A stretch of 64,000 nucleotides of DNA from Candidatus Collierbacteria bacterium GW2011_GWB2_45_17 (GTDB lineage Bacteria > Patescibacteriota > Microgenomatia > UBA1400 > MFAQ01). Each line of letters starts with the position of its first letter. Position 1 is the stretch's first letter. The DNA lies in the NCBI GenBank assembly GCA_001001485.1, contig LCKO01000005.1:3552-67551 (forward strand). The letters run 5' to 3'. Of the stretch, positions 16,327 through 63,931 are shown piece after piece. Under the pieces are notes generated by a model that did not search any database, was not told the DNA's origin, and saw nothing but the letters and a program-made list of their open reading frames with translations. The position numbers and the translations under genes are program-made.

Positions 16327-16846
16327 GTTACAACGAAATTCGAACTTATTTTCGGGACCATTACTAGTTATTGGCTCACCGCTCGGCAAAATTGCCTCGC
16401 GGTTCGCCAACCCCGCCTGCCGCGGGGTATACCGTCGCGCGACACCACTGCCTGCCGGCAGGTCACCTCCAACTGCGGTTGTCAGTGAGCCATACGAACT
16501 CGGTATCCCGCCCTCGTCGTCAATGTGAGTTTCGATACTTCGAACCAAAGCAATCTCACTCCACTGACTCTCGGTCGGAATGAATTTCTCTACGAGCTAG
16601 CGCCAGCTATCGCTGTCGCATCTTTATGTTCGTCCGCCTAGGCGGACGAAGCTCTCAACATATGGCTCGAATTTCAATCTCGCCATAAAATACCCACAGA
16701 TAGGAAACCTATTTTATCAGTGGGTATTAAATCCTTGAGACAGCATTGGCCTATGGGCCAAGTGCTTGCTTCGCAGGCACAGATTCAAGATAGCGACTGG
16801 TTTATAATGTGCGTAAACAATAATAACAAACCCTTTCATTCTAACT
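16327..16846 (+). repeat. 5' GC-rich structured module, copy B (full length)
   Basis: About 520 nt, GC-rich, homologous to 48716..49239 in conserved blocks, with sequence-variable hairpins between them; abuts the ATG at 16847. Confidence 0.8.
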
Positions 16847-32155: not shown

Positions 32156-33426
32156 GTAAAATAAAATCAGTCTACGCTCGAGAAATTCTCGACTCGCGCG
32201 GCAATCCCACCATCGAGACCACCGTCTGGTCAGACAACGCCCATGGTGCCGTCGCTTCCATACCTAGCGGCGCCTCAACCGGACGTTTAGAAGCCTACGA
32301 AATGAGAGATAGTGATCCCAACCGGTTTGGTGGTCTAGGTGTTCTAAAAGCTTGTGCCAATGTTAATCAAATCATCAGTAAATACATTGTTGGCCAAGAT
32401 CCTCTAAAACAAAACGATATCGATCAAATCCTCTTAAATACCGATGGTTCAGCCAACAAATCAAAACTAGGGGCCAACGCCATTCTATCGGTTTCCCAAG
32501 CCTGTTTTGAGCTGGGAGCCGCCTGCGCTGAAATACCTACTTTCGAGTACGCAGCTCAAAAATATGGTTTTCCACCTGCTTCACCTACTCATCTACCTTC
32601 CCCAATTTTTAATCTCATTAATGGCGGCAAGCACGGAGCCGGTAATCTTGATTTTCAAGAGTTTCATGTTATTCCGTCCAGCCGAAAGACTTTCTCTGCC
32701 TCACTGGAGATGGGTAGCGAACTATATCATTTACTCAAGAAAGTTCTCATCGAAAAAAAGGCTACTTCCTCTGTTGGAGATGAGGGTGGCTACGCTCCCA
32801 ATTTAGTTTCCAACACCGATGCCATCGAACTTTTGGTCGAAACTATCGAAGCCAGTCCATACAAATTAAACGAAGACCTTTATCTGGGACTGGATATCGC
32901 CGCTTCCACTTTTTTTCAGGGTGGAAAATATAAAATAAGCGATGTCAAAGACCCCATGACCGGTATTCAAATGGGGGATTTTTTAATCGATTTAAACCGA
33001 AAATACAGTCTCTTGTCCATTGAAGACCCCTTTGATCAGGAAGCTTGGACTGACTGGGAAAATCTCTTCGCTAATATAGGCAAACAACTGATGATCGTTG
33101 GTGACGATCTTTTAGTCACTAACAAAGCCAGACTCGAAGAAGCCATCAAACGAAGTGCCTGCAACGCGGTCCTCATCAAACCAAATCAAATTGGCACTAT
33201 TTCGGAGACTGTTGCCGTGATCAAATTAGCTAAAAAAAATAATTTCTCCGTTATCATTTCACACCGCTCAGGCGATACCGATGAAGACTTTTTGGCAGAC
33301 TTTGCCGTCGGAGTTGGAGCTGACTTTGTCAAGTTCGGCGCTCCCGGTAGGGGAGAGCGAGTCGCCAAATACAACCGCCTACTCTTTATTCAAGAATACC
33401 TAGAAAGCCTCCACCCCACCTCATGA
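32152..33426 (+). CDS. eno: Enolase
   Basis: N-terminus 'SKIKSVYAREILDSRGNPTIET' and the enolase signature region. Confidence 0.95.
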   Translation: MSKIKSVYAREILDSRGNPTIETTVWSDNAHGAVASIPSGASTGRLEAYEMRDSDPNRFGGLGVLKACANVNQIISKYIVGQDPLKQNDIDQILLNTDGSANKSKLGANAILSVSQACFELGAACAEIPTFEYAAQKYGFPPASPTHLPSPIFNLINGGKHGAGNLDFQEFHVIPSSRKTFSASLEMGSELYHLLKKVLIEKKATSSVGDEGGYAPNLVSNTDAIELLVETIEASPYKLNEDLYLGLDIAASTFFQGGKYKISDVKDPMTGIQMGDFLIDLNRKYSLLSIEDPFDQEAWTDWENLFANIGKQLMIVGDDLLVTNKARLEEAIKRSACNAVLIKPNQIGTISETVAVIKLAKKNNFSVIISHRSGDTDEDFLADFAVGVGADFVKFGAPGRGERVAKYNRLLFIQEYLESLHPTS

Positions 33427-34925
33427 AAAAGGTTATCCTCTGTATTCTCGATGGCTGGGGAATCGCGCCTGACTCACCAGGCAACGCTATCACCAGAGCC
33501 AAGCCACAGACTTTCAATTATTTACTCCAAAATTTTCCCCAAACCCAACTATTAGCCGCCGGTCCGGCTGTTGGCCTACCGGAAGGTCAAGATGGCAATA
33601 GTGAAACCGGTCACCTAAACATCGGCGCCGGCAGAATCGTCTACCAAGATCTCTCGCTTATAAACATGGCCATCGCCGACGGCAGTTTTTTTACCAATCG
33701 AGCTCTCCTTGATACCGTTAAACATCTCTCTTCTTTTGATTCTCGCCTTCATCTTTTAGGCCTCATCGGCTCATCCGGAGTTCATGCTTTCAATGAACAT
33801 CTCTACGCCCTCATGTTATCTGCCAAAAACCATAATCTTCAACACGTCTACTTGCATCTCATCACCGACGGTCGCGATAGTGATCCTCATAATGCCCTGG
33901 AACAAATCAAGGCTGTCCAAAAAAAGGTTGTCGAGCTGGGAACTGGTCAAATTGCTTCACTCATGGGTCGTTACTTTGCTATGGATCGTGACAATCATAT
34001 TGAAAGAACCCAAAAGGCGTTTGATTGTTTAATCGGATCCGATAATGTTCCCCAGAAAGAGGCTGGCTCATATTTAGAAAAACTATATTCTCAAGGAGTT
34101 ACTGATGAGTTTATTTCTCCCGCCTCTATTGGCGACGACTCAGAGACGACTCGAATCAAAGCTGGTGATGCCGTCGTATTTTTCAACTTCAGAACTGACC
34201 GTCCAAAACAGTTGACCGAAATGTTTCTTAACTCGGGTCTTCCCAATCTACGATTCGTCACCATGACCAACTATCGAGAATCTTTTTCCAATCCGGTTAT
34301 GTTTCCCCTAACTACTATCACTAACACTCTTGGAGAAATCGTTTCCAACTCAAAACAGCTTCAACTTAGAGCGGCCGAAACCGAAAAAATTGCCATGGTT
34401 ACTTACTACTTCAATGGCCAAAGCGAGGATGCCTTTCTCGGAGAGGCGCGTTTATTTATCAATTCACCCAATATTTCCACCAGCGATCTTCAGCCACGTA
34501 TGTCTACCGACAGGTTAATCGGCGAGTTTACCAAACACTTTAAAGAAACCGATTTTTCTCTTGGTATTCTCAATATTGCTTGTCCGGACATGGTGGCGCA
34601 TACCGGTAAAATCGACAAGACCATCGAAGCAGTTCAAGCGGCCGACGAAGCTCTGGGGAATCTCATAAATCTCGCCAAAGAAACTGATTCCTATCTTCTC
34701 ATCACCGCTGATCACGGTAATGCGGAAGAACTTCTAAATTCAGCCGGCGAAGTGGACACCAAACACTCGCTTCATCCGGTACCGTTCATAATTTACCATC
34801 TCAATGATTATCATTTTCAGCTACAATCCGGCAAACTTGGCGATGTCGCCCCCACCATTCTCAACCTCCTGGATCTCCCCCAACCCGCCGAAATGAACGG
34901 CAAAAACCTAATCCTCCGCTCATAG
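33423..34925 (+). CDS. gpmI: 2,3-bisphosphoglycerate-independent phosphoglycerate mutase
   Basis: N-terminus 'ILCILDGWGIAPDS' and 'ITADHGNAE' metal site. Confidence 0.9.
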   Translation: MKKVILCILDGWGIAPDSPGNAITRAKPQTFNYLLQNFPQTQLLAAGPAVGLPEGQDGNSETGHLNIGAGRIVYQDLSLINMAIADGSFFTNRALLDTVKHLSSFDSRLHLLGLIGSSGVHAFNEHLYALMLSAKNHNLQHVYLHLITDGRDSDPHNALEQIKAVQKKVVELGTGQIASLMGRYFAMDRDNHIERTQKAFDCLIGSDNVPQKEAGSYLEKLYSQGVTDEFISPASIGDDSETTRIKAGDAVVFFNFRTDRPKQLTEMFLNSGLPNLRFVTMTNYRESFSNPVMFPLTTITNTLGEIVSNSKQLQLRAAETEKIAMVTYYFNGQSEDAFLGEARLFINSPNISTSDLQPRMSTDRLIGEFTKHFKETDFSLGILNIACPDMVAHTGKIDKTIEAVQAADEALGNLINLAKETDSYLLITADHGNAEELLNSAGEVDTKHSLHPVPFIIYHLNDYHFQLQSGKLGDVAPTILNLLDLPQPAEMNGKNLILRS

Positions 34926-34975
34926 CGTCATTGCGAGGTCGCCTAGGCGACCGCAGTAATATCTCTTCCTGAAAG
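34926..34975. repeat. Small dispersed repeat unit (CGTCATTGCGAG + hairpin GTCGCCtaGGCGAC)
   Basis: 12-mer CGTCATTGCGAG is shared with five other loci; the hairpin is analogous to GTCCGCCtaGGCGGAC in modules B and C. Confidence 0.7.
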
Positions 34976-34996
34976 GTGTCTTCCTTGTAGGTAGTC

Positions 34997-35722
34997 CTAC
35001 GAGGAGACTCCTTGCAGGACATCCACCAACGATAATATCAATGTTGCCTCTCCTTTAAGCTTTCTTGTTCTTACAATCTCTAAAATTTCTAAAATACTTC
35101 CCCGAAAAATCTTTTCCGATATTTTGGTCATATCCAAAGCCAAACAAACTCTTGTCTCACCACCAAACACCACTACCATCTCTGCCAAGATCTTTTCTAA
35201 TCTCACGGTGGACTCGTAAAATACCGCCGAGAACTTCATTATTTCTGCCATCTGCTTCACATATTTGAGCATTTCACTTCTTTTTCCTGGTTTTTTGGGT
35301 AAAAATCCCAAAAACATATATTTATCGGTTGGCAGTCCCGATACGGCCAGCGCCGCACTCTCGGCCGTGGGCCCAGGCACAACCGTAACATCCCATCCTA
35401 AGGCAAGACCTTCGCTTACTAGTTTGTATCCTGGATCTGAAATTAGAGGCATTCCGGCATCGCTTACCAGCACTGCCTCTTCCAACAAGTTCATCTCAGC
35501 TAGCAAGGAGGGGAGTACTCGATGTTCATTAAAGTCATTAACAAACTTGAGTTTGGCCTTCTTTTCTTGAACTTTACCCAGACTTGTCAACTTACTCCAT
35601 AAATTACCAAACATGCGGGTATCCTCGCAAACTATGAATTTAGCCTCTGACAACACCCTCAAGACTCTCTCCGAGATATCTTCTACATTCCCAATCGGCA
35701 ACCCCACTATAGTTAGTTTCAT
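34997..35722 (-). CDS. rsmI: 16S rRNA (cytidine1402-2'-O)-methyltransferase
   Basis: Tetrapyrrole-methylase fold with 'LTIVGLPIGNVEDIS' N-terminus. Confidence 0.8.
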   Translation of the reverse strand: MKLTIVGLPIGNVEDISERVLRVLSEAKFIVCEDTRMFGNLWSKLTSLGKVQEKKAKLKFVNDFNEHRVLPSLLAEMNLLEEAVLVSDAGMPLISDPGYKLVSEGLALGWDVTVVPGPTAESAALAVSGLPTDKYMFLGFLPKKPGKRSEMLKYVKQMAEIMKFSAVFYESTVRLEKILAEMVVVFGGETRVCLALDMTKISEKIFRGSILEILEIVRTRKLKGEATLILSLVDVLQGVSS

Positions 35723-35750
35723 TAGCCTATTTTACTTCAAATACAGATCT

Positions 35751-35810
35751 CGTCATTGCGAGGTGCTCAGTGGCTCTCCTGGATACCCCTTGCGGGTAAA
35801 TCTCACTCCA
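35751..35810. repeat. Small dispersed repeat unit (CGTCATTGCGAG ... AATCTCACTCCA)
   Basis: Both terminal motifs are present, flanking a variable internal hairpin; lies between rsmI and lexA. Confidence 0.7.
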
Positions 35811-35811
35811 C

Positions 35812-36432
35812 CTATATATACTTCCTAATCACACCGACACATTTACCTTGCACCTTGACATTGATCGCGAAAATAGGGGACATGGACGAGTTCGCCGGTT
35901 CCAGACGAACTCGGGTTCTTTCTCTGAAAAATCTCTTTAGAGTAGCCAGACCGTTTTCCAAAAGTGCTACCACAATATCTCCATCCTTCACAGCACCAAT
36001 CTCGCACTCCTCGATCAGGACATAGTCACGGTCAAAAATCCCCTCTTCAATCATCGAATCACCTTTAACCTGGAGAACAAAGGCTCGTTTTTTGCCCGAT
36101 ACCATCGAGGCGGACACTTTCATAGTCGCGTTTGGATCGGTATAAGGCTCGATTGGCCGGCCAGCGGCGATAAAACCCAAAATCGGTAACTCTAAACCGG
36201 CATTTTCCACACTCGGTCTATCTATCACTTCGATTCCCCGAATAACCCCATCAAACTTGCGAATGACTCCCTTTTTTTCCAAAGCCTGAAGATGCTCATG
36301 CACAGTGGCCAGAGAAGAAACTCCGATTGCCTGAGCAATTTCCGAAAGAGTAGGGGAGTAGCCACTCTTTTGAATGAACTGAGAAATAAACTCCACGATC
36401 TGTCTTTGTCTTTTGTATAGTGTTACGGCCAT
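35812..36432 (-). CDS. lexA: LexA repressor (S24 peptidase + wHTH)
   Basis: C-terminal 'GDSMIEEGIFDRDYVLIE' Ser-Lys dyad region; N-terminal wHTH; the ATG at 36432 (MAVTLYKRQ) is preferred over the track start at 36474. Confidence 0.85.
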   Translation of the reverse strand: MAVTLYKRQRQIVEFISQFIQKSGYSPTLSEIAQAIGVSSLATVHEHLQALEKKGVIRKFDGVIRGIEVIDRPSVENAGLELPILGFIAAGRPIEPYTDPNATMKVSASMVSGKKRAFVLQVKGDSMIEEGIFDRDYVLIEECEIGAVKDGDIVVALLENGLATLKRFFRERTRVRLEPANSSMSPIFAINVKVQGKCVGVIRKYI

Positions 36433-36481
36433 ATAATCATTATTACCAAACATTACCCAAATGTCAAGTAGCACAAAATGA

Positions 36482-36522
36482 CGTCATTGCGAGAAGGTAC
36501 TCCGACGTGGCAATCTCACTCC
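36482..36522. repeat. Small dispersed repeat unit (CGTCATTGCGAG-aaggtactccgacgtg-GCAATCTCACTCCA)
   Basis: Near-identical flanks to 48884..48918 with a different central hairpin; sits in the divergent lexA/uvrB promoter region. Confidence 0.7.
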
Positions 36523-36544
36523 ATCCAAAGTAAAATACCTGTAA

Positions 36545-38593
36545 ATGAAATTTAAACTAGAGTCTTCCTTCCAGCCAACTGGGGATCAACCCAGCGCTAT
36601 TGAGAAACTATCAACTGCGATTGATCAGCAAAATCCTCATCAAACCCTAGTGGGAGTCACCGGATCTGGAAAAACCTACACCATTGCGAATATCATCCAA
36701 AAAACTCAGCTACCCACTCTGGTTATGTGTCACAACAAAACACTAGCTTCTCAGCTCTATCAAGAATTCCGTGATTTTTTCCCCCACAATGCTGTTTCTT
36801 ACTTTGTTTCTTACTACGACTACTACCAGCCGGAAGCCTACATTCCTCAAACCGATACCTATATCGAAAAAGAAGCCGATATCAATCCGGAAATAGATAA
36901 ATTTCGTCTTTCCACCACTGCCAATTTACTTACCCGTCCCGATACTATCGTCGTCGCCTCTGTTTCCTGTATCTACAACATTGGTTCACCAGTTGACCAG
37001 GAGAAAAACCTTTTACCATTAGCCAAGGGTCAAATAATCTCTCGCGATACCGTTCTGATGCGCTTATCTGATCTTCAGTACACTCGCACAAACTCTGAAC
37101 TAACTCGGGGAATGTTTCGTGCCGTCGGGAATACCGTCCAGCTCTATCCATCCTACAAAGACCTGGTTATCTCCATGACCTTCGATGGCACGACATTGAG
37201 CAATATTGAAATTCTCGATCCGTACAACTTCACCAAAATTGAAGACGAAGGTCCGGATAGTACTGGCTTTATCACTATTCACCCAGCCAAACTGTTTTTA
37301 ACAAATCCCAAAACTCAAGGAGAAGCCATTGTCAATATTCGCCGTGATCTGGAGCTTCAAATAAAAAATTTCAAAGACGCTGGCAAAATCATTGAAGCTC
37401 ATCGTCTAGAACAAAAAGTCAATTACGATCTATCCATGCTGGAAGAAGTCGGCTATGTCAGTGGCATCGAAAACTACTCACGCTACTTTGACGGTCGCCA
37501 ACCGGGATCGGCACCTTACTCTCTTCTTGAATACTTCCACCACAACGCCAAAAAATTTAACAAGCCAGGATTCCTAACAGTTATAGACGAATCTCACATC
37601 AGTCTTCCACAAGTCAGAGGTATGTATAATGGTGACCAAGCCAGAAAAGATAATCTAATTAATTTTGGCTTTCGTCTTCCCAGTGCCAAAGATAATCGAC
37701 CTCTAACCTATACCGAGTGGCAATCTCGCACTCCCATCAAGCTTTATTGCTCCGCCACACCTAGCGAACATGAGTTATCTCTTTCATACGGGAGTAAAAT
37801 TCCCACCGTGGCCGAACAAATGATTCGTCCGACTGGTCTTCTCGATCCCGCTGTCACCGTTTTCCCAGCCATTGGTCAGATCGATCACCTCACTCAGGAA
37901 GTCATCAAGAGGACAGCAAAAGGGGAACGTACTCTCATTTTGACTATGACCAAAAGAATGGCCGAAGATCTCTCAGACCACCTCAAAGAAAAATTTCATT
38001 TAAAAGTCGAGTATCTTCACTCAGATATTCATACCCTTGACAGAGCCGACATCCTCGACAAACTTCGTCTGGGTGACTTTGACTGTTTAGTGGGAATCAA
38101 TCTGCTTCGTGAAGGTCTCGATCTACCCGAAGTTTCCCTGGTTGCTATACTCGACGCCGACAAAGAAGGCTTTCTTCGCACACCTACCGCACTCATTCAA
38201 ACCATGGGTCGTGCCGCCCGCCATGTAAATGGAGAAGTCTATCTCTATGCCGACAAGACCTCAAAATCCATGAACATCGCCATCGACGAAACCCTCCGCC
38301 GCCGCAAAATCCAAATGGACTATAACGTAGCCCACGGTATCACCCCCACTGGAATTAATAAACCCATCCGTGAGAGACTCATGAAACGAGATATGAGTGC
38401 CCCAACTCCACGAATTAAAGAACTGGCCGAACACGGCTGGTCAGAGATAGACGATATCAATCCCGAGGCTCTCACTCCTCAAAAGAAAAAACTCTTAGTC
38501 ATCAAACTCAAAAAAATGATGAACCAAGCCGCCAACTCCTGGAACTTTGAGCTCGCCGTCCGCTACCGCGACACCATCAAAAAACTCCAATAG
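36545..38593 (+). CDS. uvrB: Excinuclease ABC subunit B
   Basis: Helicase motifs (GVTGSGKT, DESH), beta-hairpin region, C-terminal UvrB/UvrC interaction helix. Confidence 0.95.
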   Translation: MKFKLESSFQPTGDQPSAIEKLSTAIDQQNPHQTLVGVTGSGKTYTIANIIQKTQLPTLVMCHNKTLASQLYQEFRDFFPHNAVSYFVSYYDYYQPEAYIPQTDTYIEKEADINPEIDKFRLSTTANLLTRPDTIVVASVSCIYNIGSPVDQEKNLLPLAKGQIISRDTVLMRLSDLQYTRTNSELTRGMFRAVGNTVQLYPSYKDLVISMTFDGTTLSNIEILDPYNFTKIEDEGPDSTGFITIHPAKLFLTNPKTQGEAIVNIRRDLELQIKNFKDAGKIIEAHRLEQKVNYDLSMLEEVGYVSGIENYSRYFDGRQPGSAPYSLLEYFHHNAKKFNKPGFLTVIDESHISLPQVRGMYNGDQARKDNLINFGFRLPSAKDNRPLTYTEWQSRTPIKLYCSATPSEHELSLSYGSKIPTVAEQMIRPTGLLDPAVTVFPAIGQIDHLTQEVIKRTAKGERTLILTMTKRMAEDLSDHLKEKFHLKVEYLHSDIHTLDRADILDKLRLGDFDCLVGINLLREGLDLPEVSLVAILDADKEGFLRTPTALIQTMGRAARHVNGEVYLYADKTSKSMNIAIDETLRRRKIQMDYNVAHGITPTGINKPIRERLMKRDMSAPTPRIKELAEHGWSEIDDINPEALTPQKKKLLVIKLKKMMNQAANSWNFELAVRYRDTIKKLQ

Positions 38594-46019: not shown

Positions 46020-47350
46020 TTAATCCTTTTCGAGAAAGAATTTGGTTTATTAGAGGATTCATTAAAAAATATTCCATACAGATCATCCTTAGTCTTGTGG
46101 TAACCGTCACGATAGCTCTTTTGGGTACCTTTTTTCTATCAAAAATTCCCGAGAAAAGGTCAATCTATCGGATTGGAATTGTCGGCCAATTTGGCTCCGG
46201 TCAGCTACCTCCGTACATTATCAATTTTCTTAAAGCCGGACTTGTTACCTTAGATAGCAAGCACGAACCTCAACCAGGATTAGCCGAAAAATGGGATATT
46301 AGCGATGACGGAAAAACCTATACTTTTTATCTCCGTTCGGGTCTAAAGTGGAACGACAGCAAGGCGGTAAATGCTACCGATATTAAGATTTCTATTCCCA
46401 ATATTGTGGTCGAAACCGTTGACCCCAACATCATTCGTTTTAAAATTCCCACCAAATTCTCACCCTTTCTGTCACTGTTAAATATTCCTCTTTTGAGCTC
46501 AAGTGGAAAAATCATCGGCGACTACGATATCCGTCTCAAGCAAAAAAGCTCCGGCGTCATCTCCCAAATTACTGTCAATACATCAAACAAGGTGTTAAAC
46601 TTCAACGTTTTTCAGACTCCCAAACAAGCCATCACCGCCTTCAAACTGGGTCAAGTTGACATGGCTCTCGCTCTCCCTTCCGAATACGAATCGGACGTCG
46701 TCAAATATGGAAAAATTCAAAAGCAAATTGATTTAAACCGAGTGGTAACTCTGATCTTTAATCAGCAAGATCCCAATCTGAAGGATAAAAATGTTAGGCA
46801 AGGTATCGCCTACAGCCTAAAGGATAAAACCCTTGGTCAGACAGAGGCTTTAACCACTATTAGTCCGGTTTCTTGGGGCTTCAATCCTCTGGTAAAAACC
46901 TACCCTTATAATCTTCCGAGAACCAAGGAACTAATTAAAACTGCGGTGATCTTGGAACTCGCTACCACCCCAGAACTTCTCTCGGTTGCCGAAAATATTC
47001 GAACACAGCTAAACTCAGATAAAATTTCCATCAGTACCAAGGTTGTTTCGTCTACCCCTGAACAATTTCAACTATTCTTGACTCCCTACAATATCCCTTC
47101 CGACCCGGATCAATATCGCGACTGGCACTCAACCCAGGCAACCAACATCGGTCGGGGGTCGGACGAAAAAATCGATAAACTTTTAGAAGACGGCCGTATA
47201 ATATTAGATCAAAAAGAAAGAAAGCGAATTTACTTTGATTTCCAAAAAACCTTCTCCGAAGAACTTCCCGCTTTAGTGCTTTATCATCCCTCAACCTTCG
47301 ATCTGGCCAGAAGAGAATCTCTTTTTCAAATCATCAATAGCGGTAATTAG
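46010..47350 (+). CDS. ABC transporter substrate-binding protein, family 5 (peptide/nickel type) with N-terminal TM anchor
   Basis: 'GLAEKWDISDDGKTYTFYLRSGLKWNDSKAVNATDI' matches the SBP_bac_5 signature region. Confidence 0.65.
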   Translation: MEMINPFRERIWFIRGFIKKYSIQIILSLVVTVTIALLGTFFLSKIPEKRSIYRIGIVGQFGSGQLPPYIINFLKAGLVTLDSKHEPQPGLAEKWDISDDGKTYTFYLRSGLKWNDSKAVNATDIKISIPNIVVETVDPNIIRFKIPTKFSPFLSLLNIPLLSSSGKIIGDYDIRLKQKSSGVISQITVNTSNKVLNFNVFQTPKQAITAFKLGQVDMALALPSEYESDVVKYGKIQKQIDLNRVVTLIFNQQDPNLKDKNVRQGIAYSLKDKTLGQTEALTTISPVSWGFNPLVKTYPYNLPRTKELIKTAVILELATTPELLSVAENIRTQLNSDKISISTKVVSSTPEQFQLFLTPYNIPSDPDQYRDWHSTQATNIGRGSDEKIDKLLEDGRIILDQKERKRIYFDFQKTFSEELPALVLYHPSTFDLARRESLFQIINSGN

Positions 47351-47431
47351 TGGGCGGGGAGGGACTCGAACCCTCATGAGTTGCCTCGCAGCGTTCTGAA
47401 CACTGTGCGTCTACCATTTCGCCACCCGCCC
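47351..47431 (-). tRNA. tRNA-Leu(CAG), class II
   Basis: Acceptor GGGCGGG/CCCGCCC, anticodon loop TTCAGAA, 13-nt variable arm, T-loop TTCGAGT; abuts the stop codon of the upstream gene. Confidence 0.85.
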
Positions 47432-47476
47432 AACCACACATATTATCTCATTATTCTTGGTATAATTAACAGGCAT

Positions 47477-47549
47477 GCCGAGGTAGCCAAGGTAGTCACG
47501 GCGGGAGTCTGAAAAACTTCAGATAAGTGTGCAATTCACTTCCTCGGCA
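47477..47549 (+). tRNA. tRNA-Phe(GAA)-like, non-canonical T-loop (TGCAATT, G55)
   Basis: Perfect 7-bp acceptor GCCGAGG/CCTCGGC followed by ACC; anticodon stem GGAGT/ACTTC, loop CTGAAAA; 4-nt variable loop; T-stem AAGTG/CACTT. Confidence 0.5.
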
Positions 47550-47574
47550 CCGTTCTTGTTAAAATATTACGTAT

Positions 47575-47648
47575 GCGGGAATAGCTCAGTTGGCTAGAGC
47601 GTCTCCTTGCCAAGGAGAAGGTCGAGGGTTCGAATCCCTTTTCCCGCT
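47575..47648 (+). tRNA. tRNA-Gly(GCC)
   Basis: Acceptor GCGGGAA/TTCCCGC, discriminator U, anticodon loop TTGCCAA, T-loop TTCGAAT. Confidence 0.9.
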
Positions 47649-47678
47649 CACTTTGATTCTAAATCAGTTCATTATTAT

Positions 47679-47762
47679 GCGCGGGTGCTGTAATGGTAGC
47701 CAGGCTAGCTTGAGGTGCTAGTGCCCGTAAGGGCGTGGAGGTTCAAGTCCTCTCCCGCGCAC
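47679..47762 (+). tRNA. tRNA-Leu(GAG), class II
   Basis: Acceptor GCGCGGG/CCCGCGC, anticodon loop TTGAGGT, long variable arm, T-loop TTCAAGT. Confidence 0.85.
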
Positions 47763-47773
47763 AAATAGAAATG

Positions 47774-47846
47774 GACTCTTAGCTCAGTTGGTTAGAGCGC
47801 CTCGTTTACATCGAGGAGGTCGAAGGTTCGAATCCCTCAGGGTCCA
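47774..47846 (+). tRNA. tRNA-Val(TAC)
   Basis: Acceptor GGACTCT/AGGGTCC, anticodon loop TTTACAT, T-loop TTCGAAT, one T-stem mismatch. Confidence 0.85.
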
Positions 47847-47866
47847 CTTGATATAATTAACCATCC

Positions 47867-48694: not shown

Positions 48695-48715
48695 AAAAAT
48701 ATGATTCTGTTGTCT

Positions 48716-49239
48716 GTTATAACGAAATTCGAACTTATTTTCGGGACCATTACTAACTTATTGGCTCACCGCTCAACACTTCGTGTCTCGCGGTTCGCCA
48801 CCGCCTGCCCTGCCGGTCCGCCTTTGGCGGAGGCGGAACCACTTGCGCGCGAGAAGCGGTATCCCGCCCTCATCGTCATTGCGAGGTTCGGTACCCCAAA
48901 CCGTGGCAATCTCACTCCATTCGGATTCGGTCGGGATGATTGCTCTTACGAGCAAGCGCCAGCATTCGCTGTCGCATCTATATGTTCGTCCGCCTGAGGC
49001 GGACGAAGCTGTTCTCAACATATGGCTCAGAACATCGTCATTGCGAGGAATGAAATGACGAAGCAATCTATATAGATTGCATTTCCTCGCCATAAAATAT
49101 CAGATAGTTAGGAGTGTATTTTACTATCTGATATTTAGTGATTGAGACAGCATTGGCCTAGCGACCAATGTGCCTGCTTTGCAGGCACAAGAAATATATT
49201 TTGAACTTGTATAATTACAATTATGTTGAAAAAAATAAT
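48716..49239 (+). repeat. 5' GC-rich structured module, copy C (full length)
   Basis: Homologous to 16327..16846 (first 55 nt nearly identical; blocks ctcgcggttcgcca, cggtatcccgccctc, gcaatctcactcca, cgctgtcgcatct, GTCCGCCtgaGGCGGAC, ctcaacatatggctc, cgccataaaata, ttgagacagcattggcc, GTGCCTGCtttGCAGGCAC); the internal hairpins change sequence while keeping their pairing. Confidence 0.8.
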
Positions 49240-49935: not shown

Positions 49936-49939
49936 TCTG

Positions 49940-50011
49940 TTGCCGAGCTAGGATTCGAACCTAGGATATCCTCCTTCAAAGGGAGGCGTCCTACCACTAG
50001 ACGACTCGGCA
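49940..50011 (-). tRNA. tRNA-Gln(TTG)
   Basis: U1:A72 acceptor TGCCGAG/CTCGGCA, anticodon loop CTTTGAA, T-loop TTCGAAT. Confidence 0.85.
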
Positions 50012-50145: not shown

Positions 50146-51222
50146 TTAGTTAAGGAACAAAATGTCATAGTTGAAAAATGAATCCTTATTTTCAAGAACT
50201 GGGGTTTCCTGTCCGCTCGACAGGTCGTACTTATACAAATTGGTGTGCCCAAAGATTTGAGCATCAGTCCGGAATTGTTTCTCAAAGAGAATGAAGGTCC
50301 CGTCCAAAGACCACGCAGGGGAGCTCCCTTCGGCGACTATTTTCGGATCGGAGCCGTCGGAGTTCGCCATATAAACAGAACCAACTCCCTCAGGTGTATA
50401 ACCGGTATAAGCGAACCTACTACCATCCTGGGACCAGACAATATCACGAGCCTCCTGGTTGATGAGAACTTTCCGACCGGATCCATCGAAGTTAATTTGA
50501 ACAATGGTGTCATTCAAGTAGCTGGCGAAAATCAGGGTACCGCTGGGGCTAATTGCTTGGGAAACGGCCTTGTCGGCGATCAGATTCATATATAACAGTG
50601 AGCCCTCGTCCAGTACCATGTGGTATAGCTTGTTTCCTTCGCCTTCCCAGTTTGAATTAAAAACGATATCGTATATTCCGTTTTTGACTACCGGGCTCCA
50701 GACAAAAGACATGACATTGAACCGATCACTGCAAGAACCGGTGGGGGGCAAGTCATACTCTGAGCAATTTATGGTATAAACCCAATTCATAGTGTCCAGG
50801 CACCAGTTGTCAGAACCGTCTGAATTCATGATGCAGAAGCCACCCTTATTGGTTCCAGTGAAGTAGGCAATATATTTGCCGTCAGGGGAAACGGTTGGAT
50901 TGAACTCGTTGACCATATGGGTATTTGTAAGGTTGGTCTTTTTACCAGATTTGAGATCTAGTACCCAGATGTCGCCATTTCCCTGGTTGTTTTCCTCGTC
51001 TTCGGAAGCCACATAAGCCAGCCTCCTATCAGGAAAAAGTGAGGGATTCCAGCCATTTACTACTAGTTTAACTGTTTGGCTGGAGTCGTGCTGAACAATA
51101 GTTTGGTCGGTGAAATCGCCGGTAGCGTCATAGGACACCGACAGGAACCTGTAACTCGGTGCCTGAGAACAGGAAAACAGAGCAATAATCACCAACAAAA
51201 GACTTGATATGCGTTGTTTCAA
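50146..51222 (-). CDS. Lipoprotein with TolB-like beta-propeller (PD40 repeats)
   Basis: Lipobox LFSC, repeated 'Y...SPDG..I.F' WD40-like PD40 motifs. Confidence 0.6.
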   Translation of the reverse strand: MKQRISSLLLVIIALFSCSQAPSYRFLSVSYDATGDFTDQTIVQHDSSQTVKLVVNGWNPSLFPDRRLAYVASEDEENNQGNGDIWVLDLKSGKKTNLTNTHMVNEFNPTVSPDGKYIAYFTGTNKGGFCIMNSDGSDNWCLDTMNWVYTINCSEYDLPPTGSCSDRFNVMSFVWSPVVKNGIYDIVFNSNWEGEGNKLYHMVLDEGSLLYMNLIADKAVSQAISPSGTLIFASYLNDTIVQINFDGSGRKVLINQEARDIVWSQDGSRFAYTGYTPEGVGSVYMANSDGSDPKIVAEGSSPAWSLDGTFILFEKQFRTDAQIFGHTNLYKYDLSSGQETPVLENKDSFFNYDILFLN

Positions 51223-51289: not shown

Positions 51290-51650
51290 AAGCCAAATGT
51301 CAAGGTTATAGGACGAGAGCGCCGAATAACATTTTCTACACGTCATTTCGACCAACCTGCCCGCAGGCGCTAAAGCGCAGCTTTTGCAGGCGGGAGTGGA
51401 GAAATCCCATTCCACGAGTATGAGATCCTTCGACTTCGCTCAGGATGACGTTGGTGGAGGGAGATCTCCCACTTCTGGGATCAACGACCCCGACTACGCT
51501 CGGGATGGCGAGGCCGCGTCACCGCCTCTACGGGATCTCGCCAAGGGCGATGACCAAAGGCGCTGGTCGGCAATAACCCCTATATTTTATAACACCGGAG
51601 TAAACATTCCCCGCTACCAGCGCCAACTCAGGTGTTGAAAACAAAGGCCC
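51290..51650. repeat. GC-rich non-coding-looking region with internal direct repeats
   Basis: ccttcgacttcgctcaggatgacg and ccccgactacgctcgggatggcg are similar direct repeats; cacgtcatttcgacc resembles the CGTCATTGCGAG family; GC content is far above that of flanking genes. Confidence 0.5.
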
Positions 51651-52337
51651 GATCTGGAAACTGGAACCAAAGAGCACTCCCACTAATAAACCATAAAATA
51701 TTTGTGCCGACCTCCTCGGCGGGGTTGTCAGCGGTTCTGTGAGCATAATTGTTCCAAAAAAGAAGATCGGCCAAGAAATAAATATTTGAGAATACAGTTC
51801 CACCACATCTACTCCCTTAATCATTCCTAACACAGACACGGTCGTTACCGCCCCCATAAAAAAAGTTAAAAACAAATTAAGCCGCCTTAATTTTCGAAGG
51901 ACAAGTATTCCAATCACCATTACCGCCGGTAGCATCAGTCCACTTCCCACCCACCAAACAACCGACCCAAATTTCAATAAACTCAAAATTAAAAGAGAGA
52001 TGGCCGCTGGATTTAAAATATGTTTCTTCTTGATTACAAAGACATATTTTGATGAAATAGCTATCAAGCCTGCCAGCGCGACGACTGATAGATCGACGGG
52101 GGAAAGCACTAAAGTTAAAATAAAAGCTGTAATCAAAGTCGATTCAATGTTTGTCTTTATTTTAAGCAAAAACGAAAGAATTATATTCGTCGTCACACAG
52201 GTAAGACACAAGACAGCTGAAGATAACAGTATCTCCCAGCCTGTATAAGGCAGACTTCCCAAAAATCCCAAAACTGTAGCGTAGCCCAGGGTAGTCAATA
52301 GGCCATAAAGCATCAATTTTCTTAGCATAAAATACAT
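51528..52337 (-). CDS. RnfD/NqrB-family-like polytopic membrane protein
   Basis: Multi-TM; 'FGTIMLTEPLTTPP' resembles the RnfD/NqrB 'FFMxTDPxTSP' motif; start taken at MYFMLRK (52337); 3' end uncertain because the ORF runs into the GC-rich repeat. Confidence 0.4.
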   Translation of the reverse strand: MYFMLRKLMLYGLLTTLGYATVLGFLGSLPYTGWEILLSSAVLCLTCVTTNIILSFLLKIKTNIESTLITAFILTLVLSPVDLSVVALAGLIAISSKYVFVIKKKHILNPAAISLLILSLLKFGSVVWWVGSGLMLPAVMVIGILVLRKLRRLNLFLTFFMGAVTTVSVLGMIKGVDVVELYSQIFISWPIFFFGTIMLTEPLTTPPRRSAQIFYGLLVGVLFGSSFQIGPLFSTPELALVAGNVYSGVIKYRGYCRPAPLVIALGEIP

Positions 52338-52386
52338 TTTATACTCCTCACTTGCTTTACCCATACCAAAATGTATATAGTTACCC

Positions 52387-53157
52387 ATGCCTGACTTTTC
52401 ACCAGAGTCAACCAAGTCACTGTTTACAGAGAAATATAAAAATGATGTTCTCGGTAACTCGTATTCAGAAATTACCCAAAAACTAGATTCAATCTCGCCA
52501 AAAATTTATGGAGACTATCGAAAAATACTTGTTTTTGGCACCGTTTTCGAGACTTTAGCAGTTCAAGAACAATTAGCCAATACTCCCGAGACCCTATCGC
52601 AAAAAGGCATGAGAAGGTTGGTTGAAGATTTATATCAACAATCTCAGCTAGCATTGGGTGAACTTACACCGATTAGTACCCCTGACTTTGTTAGCGTTAT
52701 CTTTGACAAAAATGGGGAACTTATTGTTGATCAAATTGTGGAAATGAAGACGTCAGGTAAGGCACTTGAAGTCGGTATCGGAAAAGAACAACCAAAAAAA
52801 TCGGTCGAAACTATCGAAAGAGTTGTTAGCTTAATAAATTCCATTATTGAGAACAAAAGCGTTTCACACTTGTCTTCAAAAGATAAAATTTCAAACAAAA
52901 AAGAGGAGAAGAGACAAGTGTTTCTAAATAAAATTCTTAAGAAAATCGCTGAGTTAGATATTAATGAAACAATAACCCTTTCTCCAAGCCTGGAATACGT
53001 GATTATTTTGCCGCAAGGAGAAAATAGAGACATCTCGGATTTAAAATTACATAGTAAAGATGGGACGGCTATAGAGGCCAAGATCATAAATAGTCAATTT
53101 TCCAAAAAAGATATCCATCATGTCATTGACCATTATGCTGAAAACGATATAGAATAA
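52387..53157 (+). CDS. Hypothetical protein (256 aa)
   Basis: Long ORF, no motif recognised. Confidence 0.45.
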   Translation: MPDFSPESTKSLFTEKYKNDVLGNSYSEITQKLDSISPKIYGDYRKILVFGTVFETLAVQEQLANTPETLSQKGMRRLVEDLYQQSQLALGELTPISTPDFVSVIFDKNGELIVDQIVEMKTSGKALEVGIGKEQPKKSVETIERVVSLINSIIENKSVSHLSSKDKISNKKEEKRQVFLNKILKKIAELDINETITLSPSLEYVIILPQGENRDISDLKLHSKDGTAIEAKIINSQFSKKDIHHVIDHYAENDIE

Positions 53158-56495: not shown

Positions 56496-56499
56496 ATTG

Positions 56500-56573
<74 letters not shown>

Positions 56574-56578
56574 ATGAG

Positions 56579-56662
56579 TGCCGGGGGCGGGAATCGGACC
56601 CGCACTCCTTTAGAGGGAACGGGATTTTAAGTCCCGCGTGGCTACCATTTCACCACCCCGGC
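56579..56662 (-). tRNA. tRNA-Leu(TAA), class II, T-loop TCCGATT (C55)
   Basis: Acceptor GCCGGGG/CCCCGGC, anticodon loop CTTAAAA, long variable arm. Confidence 0.8.
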
Positions 56663-56746
56663 CCAAACATATCTATTTTAACCCAAAATACATCACTGTC
56701 ATTCCGGACTTGATCCAGAATCCAGAAAACTTGATATGATTATGAT

Positions 56747-57079
56747 ATGAAATTCAATCTTCGCCTCTCGTATTTGTATCTATTCTCCTTCGTCGGGCTC
56801 CTAATTACCATTATTGGTAGTATCCAAATACTCGATCTGGGGCTCAAAACCTACGTTTTTAAAGTCTCCGAGTATACCTACTATGCTGAGCCGATAAAGT
56901 CCCCTGATGGTATATCCACCGACCTCTCCGTCGAAGAACAAAAACAACGCAATCAACTAGAACAAGCCAACCAGCGCAAACGCCAGCTTTCTACCTCTCT
57001 TTCCATGATTCTCGTCGGCGTGCCTGTATATCTGTATCACTGGAAAACCATCAAGAAAGAAAATCGGCCAGAAAATTGA
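56747..57079 (+). CDS. Hypothetical 2-TM membrane protein (110 aa)
   Basis: Two hydrophobic helices flank a Q/E-rich loop. Confidence 0.45.
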   Translation: MKFNLRLSYLYLFSFVGLLITIIGSIQILDLGLKTYVFKVSEYTYYAEPIKSPDGISTDLSVEEQKQRNQLEQANQRKRQLSTSLSMILVGVPVYLYHWKTIKKENRPEN

Positions 57080-57232
57080 GCTGGAGATGGGATATGGCTC
57101 GGACGGAATTGAGACAAATTGTGGTGCAAATTGAGGCTCTCGAATCATTAAATACAGGCTCAACTTAGACCCATAATTTGACTTATGCAAGCTTGGCAAT
57201 TATAATAAGTAACATTCATCTTGGAGGTCCAC

Positions 57233-57619
57233 TTGAACATTTCAAAATTAGTAAGAGAAAACGAATCTGTTTTTCGAGAGATTCTTCATGACTTAAAAGT
57301 CAGGTTTCCACTTTTTGTACCCGAAACGTTAGATGCTGACGGAGACATTGACTCACTCCTAAGTTTATTTACACCAACATTTGCGAGTAGTGGTTTTGGA
57401 ATCGGAGAATTTGAAGTAGGTCCAGAGAATCTCGACCAAACAGAAGGTCAGCAAAAATTTAAACTTCACAGTAATGAATTAAAAATAAATGAAGCTGTAA
57501 TTGAAATTCACAATTTTCAGACCTTGTCAGGATACAACATGATTCTTCTATACGACATTACCCCCAACCAGCCACTGCAATTTAAGAGGCATGCTCCAGG
57601 AATGATAACGCGGTCCTGA
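57233..57619 (+). CDS. Hypothetical protein
   Basis: RBS GGAGG at 57223; TTG start at 57233 is in-frame with the track ORF. Confidence 0.35.
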   Translation: MNISKLVRENESVFREILHDLKVRFPLFVPETLDADGDIDSLLSLFTPTFASSGFGIGEFEVGPENLDQTEGQQKFKLHSNELKINEAVIEIHNFQTLSGYNMILLYDITPNQPLQFKRHAPGMITRS

Positions 57620-57733
57620 GTCGCCATAAACCCAGACTCTTAAGATGTTACTGAAAATAACTCTCTACCTAAGCACCTAGAAATGGGTGCTTTTTATATG
57701 AGAAACAGTGTGGAGAATTCTATACTCCAAGTG

Positions 57734-57804
57734 AGCGGGTGAGGGGAGTCGGACCCCTTTCATCAGCTTGGAAAGCTGAGGTATTACCGGTATACGACAC
57801 CCGC
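57734..57804 (-). tRNA. tRNA-Gly(TCC), T-loop TCCGACT (C55)
   Basis: Acceptor GCGGGTG/CACCCGC, discriminator U, anticodon loop TTTCCAA. Confidence 0.8.
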
Positions 57805-57861
57805 TAGCAGAGAAATTTTATCATAACAACCTTTTCCTTAGGATCAAACATCATCTCAAAT

Positions 57862-58317
57862 CTACTTGGGCTTTACTAAGTTCTCAAAAAACCCATTTTC
57901 TTCTAGCTCTTTAATGTATTTGAAGAGCTTATTGTAAACTTCGAGAGCTAGCTCCGGTCGATAAAACATTCCTGCGCTAGTACGAGTGACCAGCCCGACA
58001 GCTTTCATGTCTTCATCAAAAAGTTTGTCCTGACAAAGCATTACCTCTCTAAAACGTTGTCCTTCGGATCTAGATCCTGGTATAGCTCCCAAGGTAATTC
58101 TGACACCACGTTCGTCGGAATACTTGCTATTTTGAACCTTGAAAGTCTGCGTAATCCCACTCTTAACCAACTTTCTATATTCCCAAAGGACATCGCCCTT
58201 TTCCTTTGGCAATTTTACATACCCTAGAGCCAGCGCCAGCTTCTCTGGCGTGTTTATCTCCTTGTGTCTTTTACTCTCAACGACTGATTGATCAATATCT
58301 ACTTCTGGTCTGTTCAT
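57862..58317 (-). CDS. Hypothetical protein (about 151 aa) between two tRNAs
   Basis: The track ORF's 5' extension overlaps tRNA-Pro, so the ATG at 58317 (MNRPEVD) is chosen. Confidence 0.45.
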   Translation of the reverse strand: MNRPEVDIDQSVVESKRHKEINTPEKLALALGYVKLPKEKGDVLWEYRKLVKSGITQTFKVQNSKYSDERGVRITLGAIPGSRSEGQRFREVMLCQDKLFDEDMKAVGLVTRTSAGMFYRPELALEVYNKLFKYIKELEENGFFENLVKPK

Positions 58318-58326
58318 ATATTCAAT

Positions 58327-58400
58327 GCTACTAATGTCGGGGTGAGAGGACTCGAACCTCCGGCCTCTGCGTCCCAAACGCAGCGCTCTAGCCATCTGAG
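58327..58400 (-). tRNA. tRNA-Pro(TGG)
   Basis: Acceptor CGGGGTG/CACCCCG, anticodon loop TTTGGGA, T-loop TTCGAGT. Confidence 0.85.
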
Positions 58401-58509
58401 CTACACCCCGATATCATCATTTTACCATTCAAGCTTGTTTTTGAGGTAAAATACCTATGGCTCGTCATATGTGGAAGAATGTGGTTTACCGCGTGACGAA
58501 GCTTTACGT

Positions 58510-58585
58510 GGTGGCTGTAGCTTAGTTGGTTCAAAGCGCCTCCCTGTGGAGGAGGAGATCGGGAGTTCAAATCTCCTCAGCCACC
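58510..58585 (+). tRNA. tRNA-His(GTG) with genome-encoded G-1
   Basis: G-1 pairs with discriminator C73; acceptor GTGGCTG/CAGCCAC; anticodon loop CTGTGGA; T-loop TTCAAAT; followed by the hairpin ACCGTTccaaaAACGGT. Confidence 0.85.
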
Positions 58586-58599
58586 CAATAGATACCGTT

Positions 58600-63738: not shown

Positions 63739-63814
63739 GGTGCACCAAGAGGGATTTGAACCCCCAACCTACGGTTCCGAAGACCGGCGCTCTATCCAGT
63801 TGAGCTATTGGTGC
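63738..63814 (-). tRNA. tRNA-Arg(TCG) with encoded CCA
   Basis: Acceptor GCACCAA/TTGGTGC, then A-CCA; anticodon loop CTTCGGA (one 27:43 mismatch); T-loop TTCAAAT; the CCA overlaps the start codon of the downstream gene by 1 nt. Confidence 0.75.
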
Positions 63815-63857
63815 ATAGGGATATTTTACCCTGAAATGAGGTAAAATAGGCAAGTTC

Positions 63858-63931
63858 GGGTCAGTAGCTCAGTTGGTTAGAGCACCTGCCTCTTAAGTAG
63901 GGTGTCGCGGGTTCGAGTCCCGCCTGACCCA
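63858..63931 (+). tRNA. tRNA-Lys(CTT)
   Basis: Paralog of the tRNA-Lys(TTT) at 19664; anticodon loop CTCTTAA, T-loop TTCGAGT. Confidence 0.85.

Follow-up and report, generated by a model that had tools for sequence, protein, structure and literature searches.

We analysed a 64-kb window of DNA (64,000 nucleotides, contig LCKO01000005.1) from Candidatus Collierbacteria bacterium GW2011_GWB2_45_17, in which a small dispersed repeat occupies the intergenic spacers of a gpmI–rsmI–lexA–uvrB gene cluster and recurs in two large non-coding modules. The repeat is a selfish hairpin-forming DNA repeat. Its copies are probably (we put the probability at about 0.7) non-autonomous elements akin to the CGTC-tagged repetitive extragenic palindromes (REPs) and the NTS-like Ssn-related motifs (SRMs), and are likely to be recognised by an Ssn-type nuclease. 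The repeat has a common anatomy and sharp boundaries, is widely distributed, is found beside Ssn-like genes and is present at the lexA locus in this lineage only; by analogy with the published systems, we infer both the action of an Ssn enzyme on the copies in this organism and the way in which they spread. The copies in the window are recent passengers in a variable region.

The 5′ 12-mer of the repeat, CGTCATTGCGAG, occurs exactly at five positions of the window (34926, 35751, 36482, 48874 and 49036), against about 0.008 expected (2 × 64000 / 4^12), and a two-mismatch variant, CGTCAATGTGAG, lies at 16518. A preliminary description of this DNA had proposed a small dispersed repeat at six or more loci, and these five exact 12-mers and one variant bear it out; four of its coordinates were right, and the remaining two, 48884 and 16517, should read 48874 and 16518. 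We refer to the copies at 34926, 35751 and 36482 as A, B and C (one in each of the three spacers of the gpmI–rsmI–lexA–uvrB cluster) and to those at 48874, 49036 and 16518 as D, E and F (all within the two non-coding modules). When up to two mismatches are allowed, the 12-mer has 10 matches in the window, compared with 3.3 ± 1.9 in shuffled sequences; a match at 39130 (CGTCATTCCTAG) was discarded as due to chance, as it lies inside an open reading frame (ORF) and is without a proper 3′ arm. The 3′ partner AATCTCACTCCA is exact at 16552, 35799, 36512 and 48908, and the segment between the arms has a different sequence in each copy. The picture of a 12-mer and a partner flanking a locus-specific hairpin therefore stands for the core, which differs at each locus, and stands only in part for the partner, which is exact in four of the six copies. 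All six copies begin with CGTC, a tag that remains unpaired, outside the predicted stem, in copies C and D. The CGTC before ATTGC and the C after GCAAT are kept in copies B–F, and the 3′ tail CTCACTCCA is found in copies B, C, D and F, is lost in A and is different in E. All six copies lie on the + strand, which is not significant given that around 75% of the genes do so too. The + strand of the window has a negative GC skew (about −0.1) and a positive AT skew over its whole length, despite most genes being on that strand; we draw no conclusion from the shared orientation.

Beyond the window, a scan of public collections with the pattern CGTCATTGCGAG-N8-38-GCAATCTC matched 98 stretches of viral contigs and at least 120 stretches of species-representative genomes. 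The genome hosts, according to record titles, include Patescibacteria, Bacteroidota, Chloroflexota, alpha-, beta- and gamma-Proteobacteria (Pseudomonadota), Planctomycetota, Omnitrophota, Zixibacteria, Armatimonadota, Atribacterota, Negativicutes, Myxococcota, Margulisbacteria and Fibrobacterota, among others. The class marked by ATTGCGAG spans more than 15 phyla plus viral contigs, and it is abundant in groundwater metagenomes of the candidate phyla radiation (CPR). The local subtype, with the tail ...AATCTCACTCCA, was found in at least 109 metagenome stretches, with sharp boundaries (Y/CGTC ... CTCACTCCA/Y, the slashes marking the ends of the element) and unrelated flanking sequences; its carriers include Microgenomates contigs of 0.7–1.1 Mb (Ga0265292_1000009 and Ga0208373_1000003). 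The sequence upstream of the subtype is rich in C and poor in G, in part owing to clusters in which a copy comes after the tail of another element. A literature search with the 12-mer CGTCATTGCGAG and its reverse complement returned unrelated primer matches only.

Comparison of 264 distinct elements revealed how the class is built. One of the tetranucleotides CGAA, CGTG or CGCG immediately precedes GCAAT in 228 of them, and the outer ATTGC/GCAAT stem is part of the minimum-free-energy fold in 183; the GTC before the stem and the C after it are constant in these wider sets by construction of the search pattern. The inner segments are self-complementary hairpins that differ from lineage to lineage (for example, GCGAAGC, CCCCGA-cttg-TCGGGG and TTTCGG-tacc-CCGAA); their folding z-scores are modest (mean −0.7) because many of them are 9-nt mini-hairpins. 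Given these shared bases, the stem and the replaceable inner hairpin, the elements have a common anatomy: CGTC tag, ATTGC, GAG, variable hairpin, CGWR, GCAAT and CTC tail. The corrected class expression reads YCGTCATTGCGAG-N8-40-CGWRGCAATCTC.

The class also has characteristic sites. Inverted pairs are frequent just past stop codons in other genomes, and the window contains no ATTGCGAG-class dimers. Copies are also read through in frame in phage and host genes. Among 96 unique metagenome copies of the local subtype, 40 lie inside open frames of at least 200 codons (putative genes), 34 of them in forward and 6 in reverse orientation; the forward strand of the subtype is stop-free in every frame and the reverse strand in just one of its three, so that strand openness alone leads to an expectation of around 30:10. 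Subtype copies stand in frame (…TPTTTTPVIASFGTPNRGNLTPSTSPKPP…) within open frames of 770–1090 codons at L258, L291, L302 and L327, and also at L242 and L313, in Pro/Thr-rich, linker-like stretches. At L177 (5915–6766, − strand), in an Anaerolineales metagenome-assembled genome, an inverted pair of the repeat is in frame (…NSVIARRSEATTKQSSTHEEIASGYRPRNDGATL…) in a purQ-like glutamine amidotransferase, the homologues of which at L119 and L221 are without the insert. Viral contigs L080 (691–844 and 3349–5620) and L022 carry head-to-tail arrays with a fixed 41-nt period, made of a 31-nt unit and a constant 10-nt spacer (TGCTTTAATC); these arrays are unlike CRISPR because their spacers are identical.

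The neighbours of the class include a small nuclease gene. Among the matches listed for the 120 genome loci, the sole gene family that recurs beside the class is a GIY-YIG ORF of about 95 amino acids, found at five loci. In all, the class flanks Ssn-like GIY-YIG ORFs at five independent loci (L115, L195, L357, L359 and L237). These Ssn-like ORFs encode single-domain PF01541 proteins of 86–98 amino acids, with UPF0213 proteins as their nearest solved relatives. At L115 (Planctomycetota), a forward copy lies 11 nt upstream of the GIY-YIG ORF and reverse copies lie downstream; at L195, reverse copies lie downstream of the ORF. The metagenome contig L237 carries the CPR subtype twice, and around 25 nt downstream of one of these copies begins a truncated ORF (a fragment of 25 amino acids) with the start ...CIYIMSNEYNTTIYIGVTSN, which is the N-terminal GIY-YIG signature. 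Across 41 Ssn-like loci on viral contigs, CGTCAT-tagged hairpins occur within 350 nt in 22 and on both sides in 14; several of these loci have canonical NTS and two (L357 and L359) have the ATTGCGAG class, the copies at L357 being almost identical to copy E of the window. From these recurrent GIY-YIG neighbours it follows that the ATTGCGAG class is associated with Ssn-like genes. At L115 (about 4800–5650), in a Planctomycetota metagenome-assembled genome, the motif–GIY-YIG–motif cassette stands between two copies of the same host segment of around 110 nt, which resembles the 5′ end of pheT (MNVSYNWLKELVEFDLTPEELAQKL...); this arrangement suggests either a homing-like event or an insertion that duplicated a long stretch of target.

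Published biochemistry provides the model for such a nuclease. SsnA binds the Neisseria NTS (CGTCATTCCCGCGMAVGCGGGAATCYRG) in the form of a single-stranded DNA (ssDNA) hairpin and makes its cut a few nucleotides upstream (Chenal et al., Nat Commun 2025, PMC11893778); it is a single-domain GIY-YIG nuclease of 94 amino acids that ignores double-stranded DNA, RNA and the opposite strand (PMC11893778). The three bases (GTC) preceding the palindrome matter most for cleavage and the C following it matters most for binding, and the loop is dispensable and extendable (PMC11893778). SRMs flank ssn genes across many phyla, in a motif–ssn–motif layout like that of an insertion sequence (IS) (PMC11893778). 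By analogy, the + strand of the repeat would fold as ssDNA into an unpaired 5′ CGTC, a 5-bp ATTGC/GCAAT stem, a GAG/CGWR internal loop, the variable inner hairpin and an unpaired CTC(ACTCCA) tail. A single-domain GIY-YIG ssDNA endonuclease of about 95 amino acids, as with NTS and SsnA, would bind this hairpin in a strand-specific manner that depends on sequence and structure, and would then nick a few nucleotides upstream of the tag. Repeats would flank the nuclease gene in the IS-like motif–ssn–motif arrangement, solo copies would accumulate at gene ends, in tolerant protein loops and in RNA genes, and copies would spread and decay as non-autonomous partners of motif–ssn–motif cassettes.

Several results weigh against this reading. 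The 64-kb window contains no Ssn-like gene, the only GIY-YIG domain in it being that of uvrC, and a profile search of around 930 kb (the window, its relatives and metagenome loci that carry the subtype) turned up just two Ssn-like genes, of which that of L281 is complete and that of L237 truncated; the L281 protein is closest to Pedobacter-type (Bacteroidota-type) proteins rather than to CPR proteins. This near-absence of ssn genes from the window and the related sequences is the main weakness of a nuclease-based mechanism and leaves room for orphan copies. Moreover, the published SRM expression, HGTCWYN(0-2)YYVSBRHN(0-5)WNVSBRGN(0-2)RNCYNB (PMC11893778), recognises the NTS control but fails on all six copies and on the class's canonical short form. 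The described CGTC-tagged REP families, from five phyla, have stems of 8–9 bp and loops of 4–5 nt (PMC3733652), a definition that the 5-bp stem with its internal loop and 8–38-nt inner hairpin fails. Copies B and C fold no better than shuffled sequences. Finally, the published Ssn work shows cleavage, not transposition (PMC11893778).

The near-absence of the nuclease is also an argument for regarding the copies as fossils: repeats of the same kind in a genome that has no cognate nuclease, present as inert relics that are decaying or have been co-opted. Decay is visible in the lost 3′ arm of copy A, the poor folding of copies B and C and the two substitutions in the 12-mer of copy F. However, the other five 12-mers and four 12-nt tails are still exact, the subtype is abundant and well conserved across many contigs, the copies in the gene cluster postdate the split from relatives with 93% LexA identity, and at L237 a CPR-subtype copy lies directly upstream of an Ssn-like ORF. 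We consider it unlikely, although deserving of serious attention, that the copies are such relics.

Whether the repeat could belong to a transposase-driven family was judged from its ends, flanks and neighbours. The preliminary description had considered a MITE (a miniature transposable element with inverted repeats) or a REP-like element. The REP-like part of this proposal agrees with the data, as hundreds of relatives exist and the dispersed copies are sharply bounded around a self-complementary core that varies; the MITE part fails, for want of terminal inverted repeats and of target-site duplications. A classical MITE was rejected because complementarity between the ends, CGTCATTGCGAG and GCAATCTCACTCCA, is confined to ATTGC, and they are not terminal inverted repeats. 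Flanking direct repeats of 2–8 nt were no more frequent than in controls. Among the matches listed for 1324 ORFs flanking the 120 genome loci, no transposase family recurred, and no REP-associated tyrosine transposase (RAYT) or Y1 transposase was found. The published motifs are orientated hairpins rather than paired arms, so the MITE picture fits poorly, and the lack of target-site duplications is what we would expect from an ssDNA-type mechanism rather than from a cut-and-paste MITE. A GTAG-type REP or REPIN moved by a RAYT (an IS200/IS605-like tyrosine transposase), or an IS-derived classical MITE, would account for hairpin repeats with a conserved 5′ tag and for the frequent inverted pairs in other genomes, and IS200/IS605 elements likewise produce no target duplications. 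Yet the tag is CGTC rather than GTAG, the small GIY-YIG gene is the only recurrent neighbour among the matches listed, and CGTC-tagged REPs are reported without RAYT association (PMC3733652). Together, the missing target-site duplications and the missing tyrosine transposase argue against both a classical MITE and a RAYT-driven REP, and we regard this explanation as effectively refuted.

Copies A–C lie in a cluster that a Pfam gene map resolves into gpmI (33423–34925, +), rsmI (34997–35722, −), lexA (35812–36432, −, with an ATG start) and uvrB (36545–38593, +). The placement of three copies in the spacers around rsmI, lexA and uvrB, one of them in the divergent lexA/uvrB region, was correctly assigned from the start. 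Copy A (34926–34969, +) lies in a convergent spacer: its first base follows directly on the gpmI stop codon, and 27 nt separate its end from the rsmI stop codon. It consists of the CGTC tag, ATTGC, GAG, an inner hairpin (GTCGCCTAGGCGAC) and a decayed 3′ arm (CGCAGTAATATCTCTTCC), folds as DNA at −7.8 kcal/mol (z −2.3) and shares its inner hairpin with intact elements of L227 and L273. Copy B (35751–35810, +) lies 1 nt from the lexA stop codon and 28 nt from the rsmI start, antisense to both genes; it has an inner segment of 35 nt and the 3′ arm AAATCTCACTCCA, folds weakly and has an end (...TGCGGGTAAATCTCACTCCA) that is also seen in L233. Copy C (36482–36523, +) lies in the divergent lexA/uvrB spacer (112 nt), separated by 14 nt from the lexA −35 hexamer on one side and by 21 nt from the uvrB ATG on the other, and near-identical elements (GAGGTACTCCGACGTG core) occur in L243, L248 and L285.

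We compared this region with eight orthologous lexA loci (L334–L338 and L380–L382; LexA identity 77–93%). The nearest named relatives of the window's LexA belong to Candidatus Collierbacteria in the Microgenomates group (CPR/Patescibacteria), and an identical LexA is encoded by contigs of the Rifle groundwater assemblies GCA_001001715.1 and GCA_000997125.1. Both the 12-mer and the tail are absent from the positions of copies A, B and C in all eight orthologous loci, whereas six contigs from the population of the window itself (at least 99.4% identity) carry identical versions of all three. Copies A–C entered the lexA–uvrB region only in this lineage, in which they are lineage-specific passengers, and they are younger than the split from the relatives with 93% LexA identity. 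Two relatives have almost no room for a copy: the lexA–rsmI spacer is 3 nt long at L336, where the ends of rsmI and gpmI overlap, and 10 nt long at L382. To judge from their sequences, these spacers are effectively empty sites. At the position of copy A, L382 instead carries a canonical NTS-class element (TGTCATTCCCGCGTAGGCGGGAATCCA) in the same orientation, which indicates that an element of another class inserted independently at the same gene boundary.

The same spacers differ among the relatives in other ways. An extra gene of 111–161 amino acids without a Pfam match lies between uvrB and lexA at L334–L336 and L381 and is missing from the window (36433–36544), and small opposite-strand ORFs (72–179 amino acids) occur in the lexA–rsmI and rsmI–gpmI spacers of relatives and are missing from the window genome. 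The spacers of the gpmI–rsmI–lexA–uvrB cluster appear from this comparison to be a hot spot for small gains and losses.

The preliminary description had asked whether placement in the lexA/uvrB control region gives the repeat an operator or promoter function, and the possibility that copy C, and perhaps copy B, is part of SOS control (whether by serving LexA as an operator or by contributing to a promoter of lexA, uvrB or rsmI) can be weighed against the same loci. Its attractions are the position of copy C in the divergent spacer and the promoter-like −35 hexamers inside the repeat: a consensus scan found the 9/12 sites GTGGCA-18-TAAAAT (uvrB), with its −35 inside copy C, and ATGACG-16-TAAAAT (rsmI), with its −35 inside copy B. 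In addition, uvrB lacks the upstream 111–161-amino-acid gene of the relatives and hence needs a promoter within the 112-nt spacer. However, the promoter-like sites total three, compared with 2.7 ± 1.4 in shuffled sequences, and are therefore not in excess; the same repeat sequence occurs at hundreds of unrelated loci; and the eight orthologous loci are without it. The predicted lexA promoter is strong (36467–36439, −; TTGACA-17-AATAAT, 11/12 consensus, with the spacer TTTGGGTAATGTTTGG) and lies outside copy C, as does a conserved motif: in the six relatives with readable upstream sequence (L336–L338 and L380–L382), TTGAC(A/T)TTTGGGTAWTGTTTGG and then a −10 box precede lexA. We propose this promoter-spacer motif, TTTGGGTAWTGTTTGG, as a better candidate for a putative LexA operator than the repeat. 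To our knowledge, the candidate box is unlike the familiar classical LexA boxes. A second TTTGGGTAWTGTTTGG motif lies just upstream of the lexA promoter copy at L337, L380 and L382. An SOS operator role for the repeat is not supported, and the repeat seems not to be part of the conserved SOS control region; operator function of copy C is largely refuted, and we hold it very improbable that the copies belong to SOS control. A contribution of copy C to the uvrB promoter is possible, because the 111–161-amino-acid gene of the relatives is missing here, although we rate it low.

The other three copies lie, as the preliminary description had indicated, in large modules, which proved to be two homologous non-coding modules of about 450 nt that resemble structured RNA. 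Module 1 (16327–16768, +) hosts copy F; its paralogue, module 2 (48714–49187, +), is 77% identical to it and contains copies D and E. Module 2 is located between a transfer RNA (tRNA) gene cluster and tRNA-Gln; the fifteen tRNA genes of the window form several small clusters (47350–47847, 49939–50011, 56499–58586 and 63738–63933). The module family has full-length members on at least eight metagenome contigs, a few of which carry a pair of them, and it includes modules of L244, L266, L277, L278, L289, L307 and L325; at least two module sequence subtypes coexist in the same genomes. RNAalifold, applied to a ten-member alignment (A3), gave a consensus of 94 pairs, 21 of which have compensatory double changes. 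In this structure, 95.9% of cells are paired, and the 21 double-change pairs compare with 8.6 ± 1.9 in shuffles and with 1–5 when partners are slid, bearing in mind that the structure was derived from the same alignment that was used for counting the pair changes. Judging by invariant G–U pairs, the + strand is the one that folds, and three hairpins are enclosed by a long-range helix. The modules have no Rfam match. On the strength of the predicted structure, we propose the family as a candidate new structured RNA of Microgenomates.

Within the modules, the repeat takes two different positions. Copy D (48874–48919, +) forms a hairpin domain of module 2, corresponding to helices 5 and 6 of the module consensus structure, and copy F (16518–16563, +), with the variant CGTCAATGTGAG, is at the homologous position of module 1. 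This domain, enclosed by a stem GTATCCCG/CGGGATR at a fixed module position, is found in nine of the ten module members and is shortened in L244b. Copy E (49036–49083, +), by contrast, is absent from module 1 and sits in the terminal loop of a module hairpin, TATGGC...GCCATA; it consists of a CGTCATT...AATGACG hairpin followed by a GCAATCTATATAGATTGC hairpin at the 3′ end, with a fold z-score of −5.2. Its insertion is shared by L307, whereas L289 and L283 have a different class (TGTCATTCCGGGCTTGACCCGGAATC) at this site and six members have nothing there. Given the fixed D/F domain and the insertions at the site of copy E, the repeat has two relations to the module: it is one of the module's fixed domains, and it has repeatedly invaded one module loop. 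The suggestion that it is the building block of the larger modules therefore applies to copies D and F, as a conserved domain, and not to copy E, a secondary insertion, nor to the modules as wholes, which are not assembled from the repeat.

The conserved D/F hairpin domain, within a module supported by covariation, raises the alternative that the repeat acts as RNA, either as a stabiliser or terminator at mRNA 3′ ends or as a functional domain of the 450-nt module RNA. Copies A and B lie 0 and 1 nt from stop codons, and many REPs have been argued to be transcribed (Di Nocera et al., PMC3733652). On the other hand, copy B is antisense to both of its neighbouring genes, no U-tract or terminator-like site was found at any copy, relatives manage without the copies, around 40% of subtype copies lie within long ORFs, and SsnA does not bind RNA (PMC11893778). 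An Rfam search across the whole window likewise gave no match at the gathering score and, up to E = 10, only chance-level matches near the copies and module 2. An RNA role as the explanation of the repeat is in our judgement improbable.

A mixed cluster of hairpin repeats at 51341–51560 holds relatives of the class. A diverged CGTC-tagged element of a sister class (CGTCATTTCGAC ... GGAGAAATCCCATTCCA) occupies 51341–51414 on the + strand, and an element of another sister class (CGTCATCCTGAGCGAAGTCGAAGGATCTCA) occupies 51421–51450 on the − strand, with further degenerate − strand units to about 51560. The sister classes have the forms CGTCATTTCGAC...AATCCCATTCCA (+) and CGTCATCCTGAG...GGATCTCA (−, together with the degenerate units), and the cluster lies between the stop of a − strand gene (51528–52415) and the start of the gene at 50146–51222. 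The 51421–51450 element was revealed by a generic 'GTC + 5-bp stem' finder that was otherwise too noisy, with 82 matches compared with 72 ± 9 in shuffles.

The reading of the copies as Ssn-type hairpin repeats would assign a CPR repeat to a system that has had a biochemistry only since 2025, and would remove a wrong regulatory reading of the lexA/uvrB spacer. It would also mean that a very widespread class, marked by its composite stem and changing inner hairpin, escapes the published SRM expression, and that current surveys probably count too few Ssn sites. That the inner hairpin varies agrees with the published replaceability of the loop, which is relevant to Ssn enzymes as programmable ssDNA cutters. 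For annotation, the class would explain recurrent spurious or inserted peptides (RHCE.., VIAS.. and SLRG..NLTP), and it marks out a small-insertion hot spot in the genomes of Microgenomates. A bolder proposal, which we offer as speculation that is rather unlikely to hold in full, is that ATTGCGAG/GCAATCTC is a distinct pan-bacterial, phage-borne specificity class of Ssn-type ssDNA hairpin site, whose inner hairpin can be replaced freely, and that it may have become largely uncoupled from a resident nuclease in CPR bacteria and been co-opted there as a fixed domain of a new 450-nt structured RNA and as in-frame peptides in large proteins. If this were true, the lexA/uvrB placement could mirror a real link between ssDNA-nuclease sites and repair loci, as hinted by Di Nocera et al., rather than chance.

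Four published systems invite comparison with the repeat. CGTC-tagged REPs (Di Nocera et al., BMC Genomics 2013) are marked by a CGTC tag that stays unpaired, a stem that opens with A–T and a short CCA-type tail, and no transposase accompanies them (PMC3733652); the tag may be CGTC, TGTC or CCTC, inverted dimers are frequent, and Neisseria dRS3 and the Rickettsia palindromic elements (RPEs) RPE-4 and RPE-6 belong to the superfamily (PMC3733652). They lie mostly beside the 3′ ends of ORFs and sometimes within genes, notably uvrA, uvrB and other repair genes (PMC3733652). The repeat described here shares the unpaired CGTC tag, the A–T stem start (ATTGC...GCAAT, in which the first two stem positions are A/T-complementary), the CCA-ending tail and the lack of a transposase, and one of its copies is near uvrB, as Di Nocera et al. 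noted of REPs in or near uvrA and uvrB. As to siting, copies A and B adjoin stop codons and copy C lies in a divergent spacer, and elsewhere some copies lie in genes. It differs in its composite stem, its longer tail (CTCACTCCA) and its range of more than 15 phyla plus viral contigs. One of the families CGTC-1 to CGTC-4 may already include ATTGCGAG. RPEs, as selfish DNA inserted in frame, are matched by the 40 of 96 subtype copies in open frames of at least 200 codons and by the reading-through in phage and host proteins; the present repeat is much shorter (about 30–60 nt) and occurs in many genera, and the window copies are all intergenic or in modules. With GTAG REPs and their RAYTs and with IS200/IS605 elements it has in common a hairpin with an adjacent short tag in ssDNA, the lack of target duplications and frequent inverted doublets, whereas its tag is CGTC, its enzyme candidate is a GIY-YIG rather than an HUH/Y1 protein, and no RAYT was found. 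The likeness to NTS and SRMs extends from the element to its neighbours: (C)GTC directly before a palindrome starting ATT and a C directly after it, a fixed orientation with a variable loop, many copies per genome, and small single-domain GIY-YIG genes flanked on one or both sides. The differences are the ATTGC/GCAAT stem with its GAG/CGWR internal loop and inner hairpin of 8–38 nt, where NTS has a continuous ATTCCCGCG stem, and the host, a CPR bacterium with no ssn gene near the window copies. Because the SRM expression and the stem geometry fail to capture it, we treat the window repeat as a variant class that would work like an SRM or a CGTC-tagged REP and that lies outside the current definitions of both.

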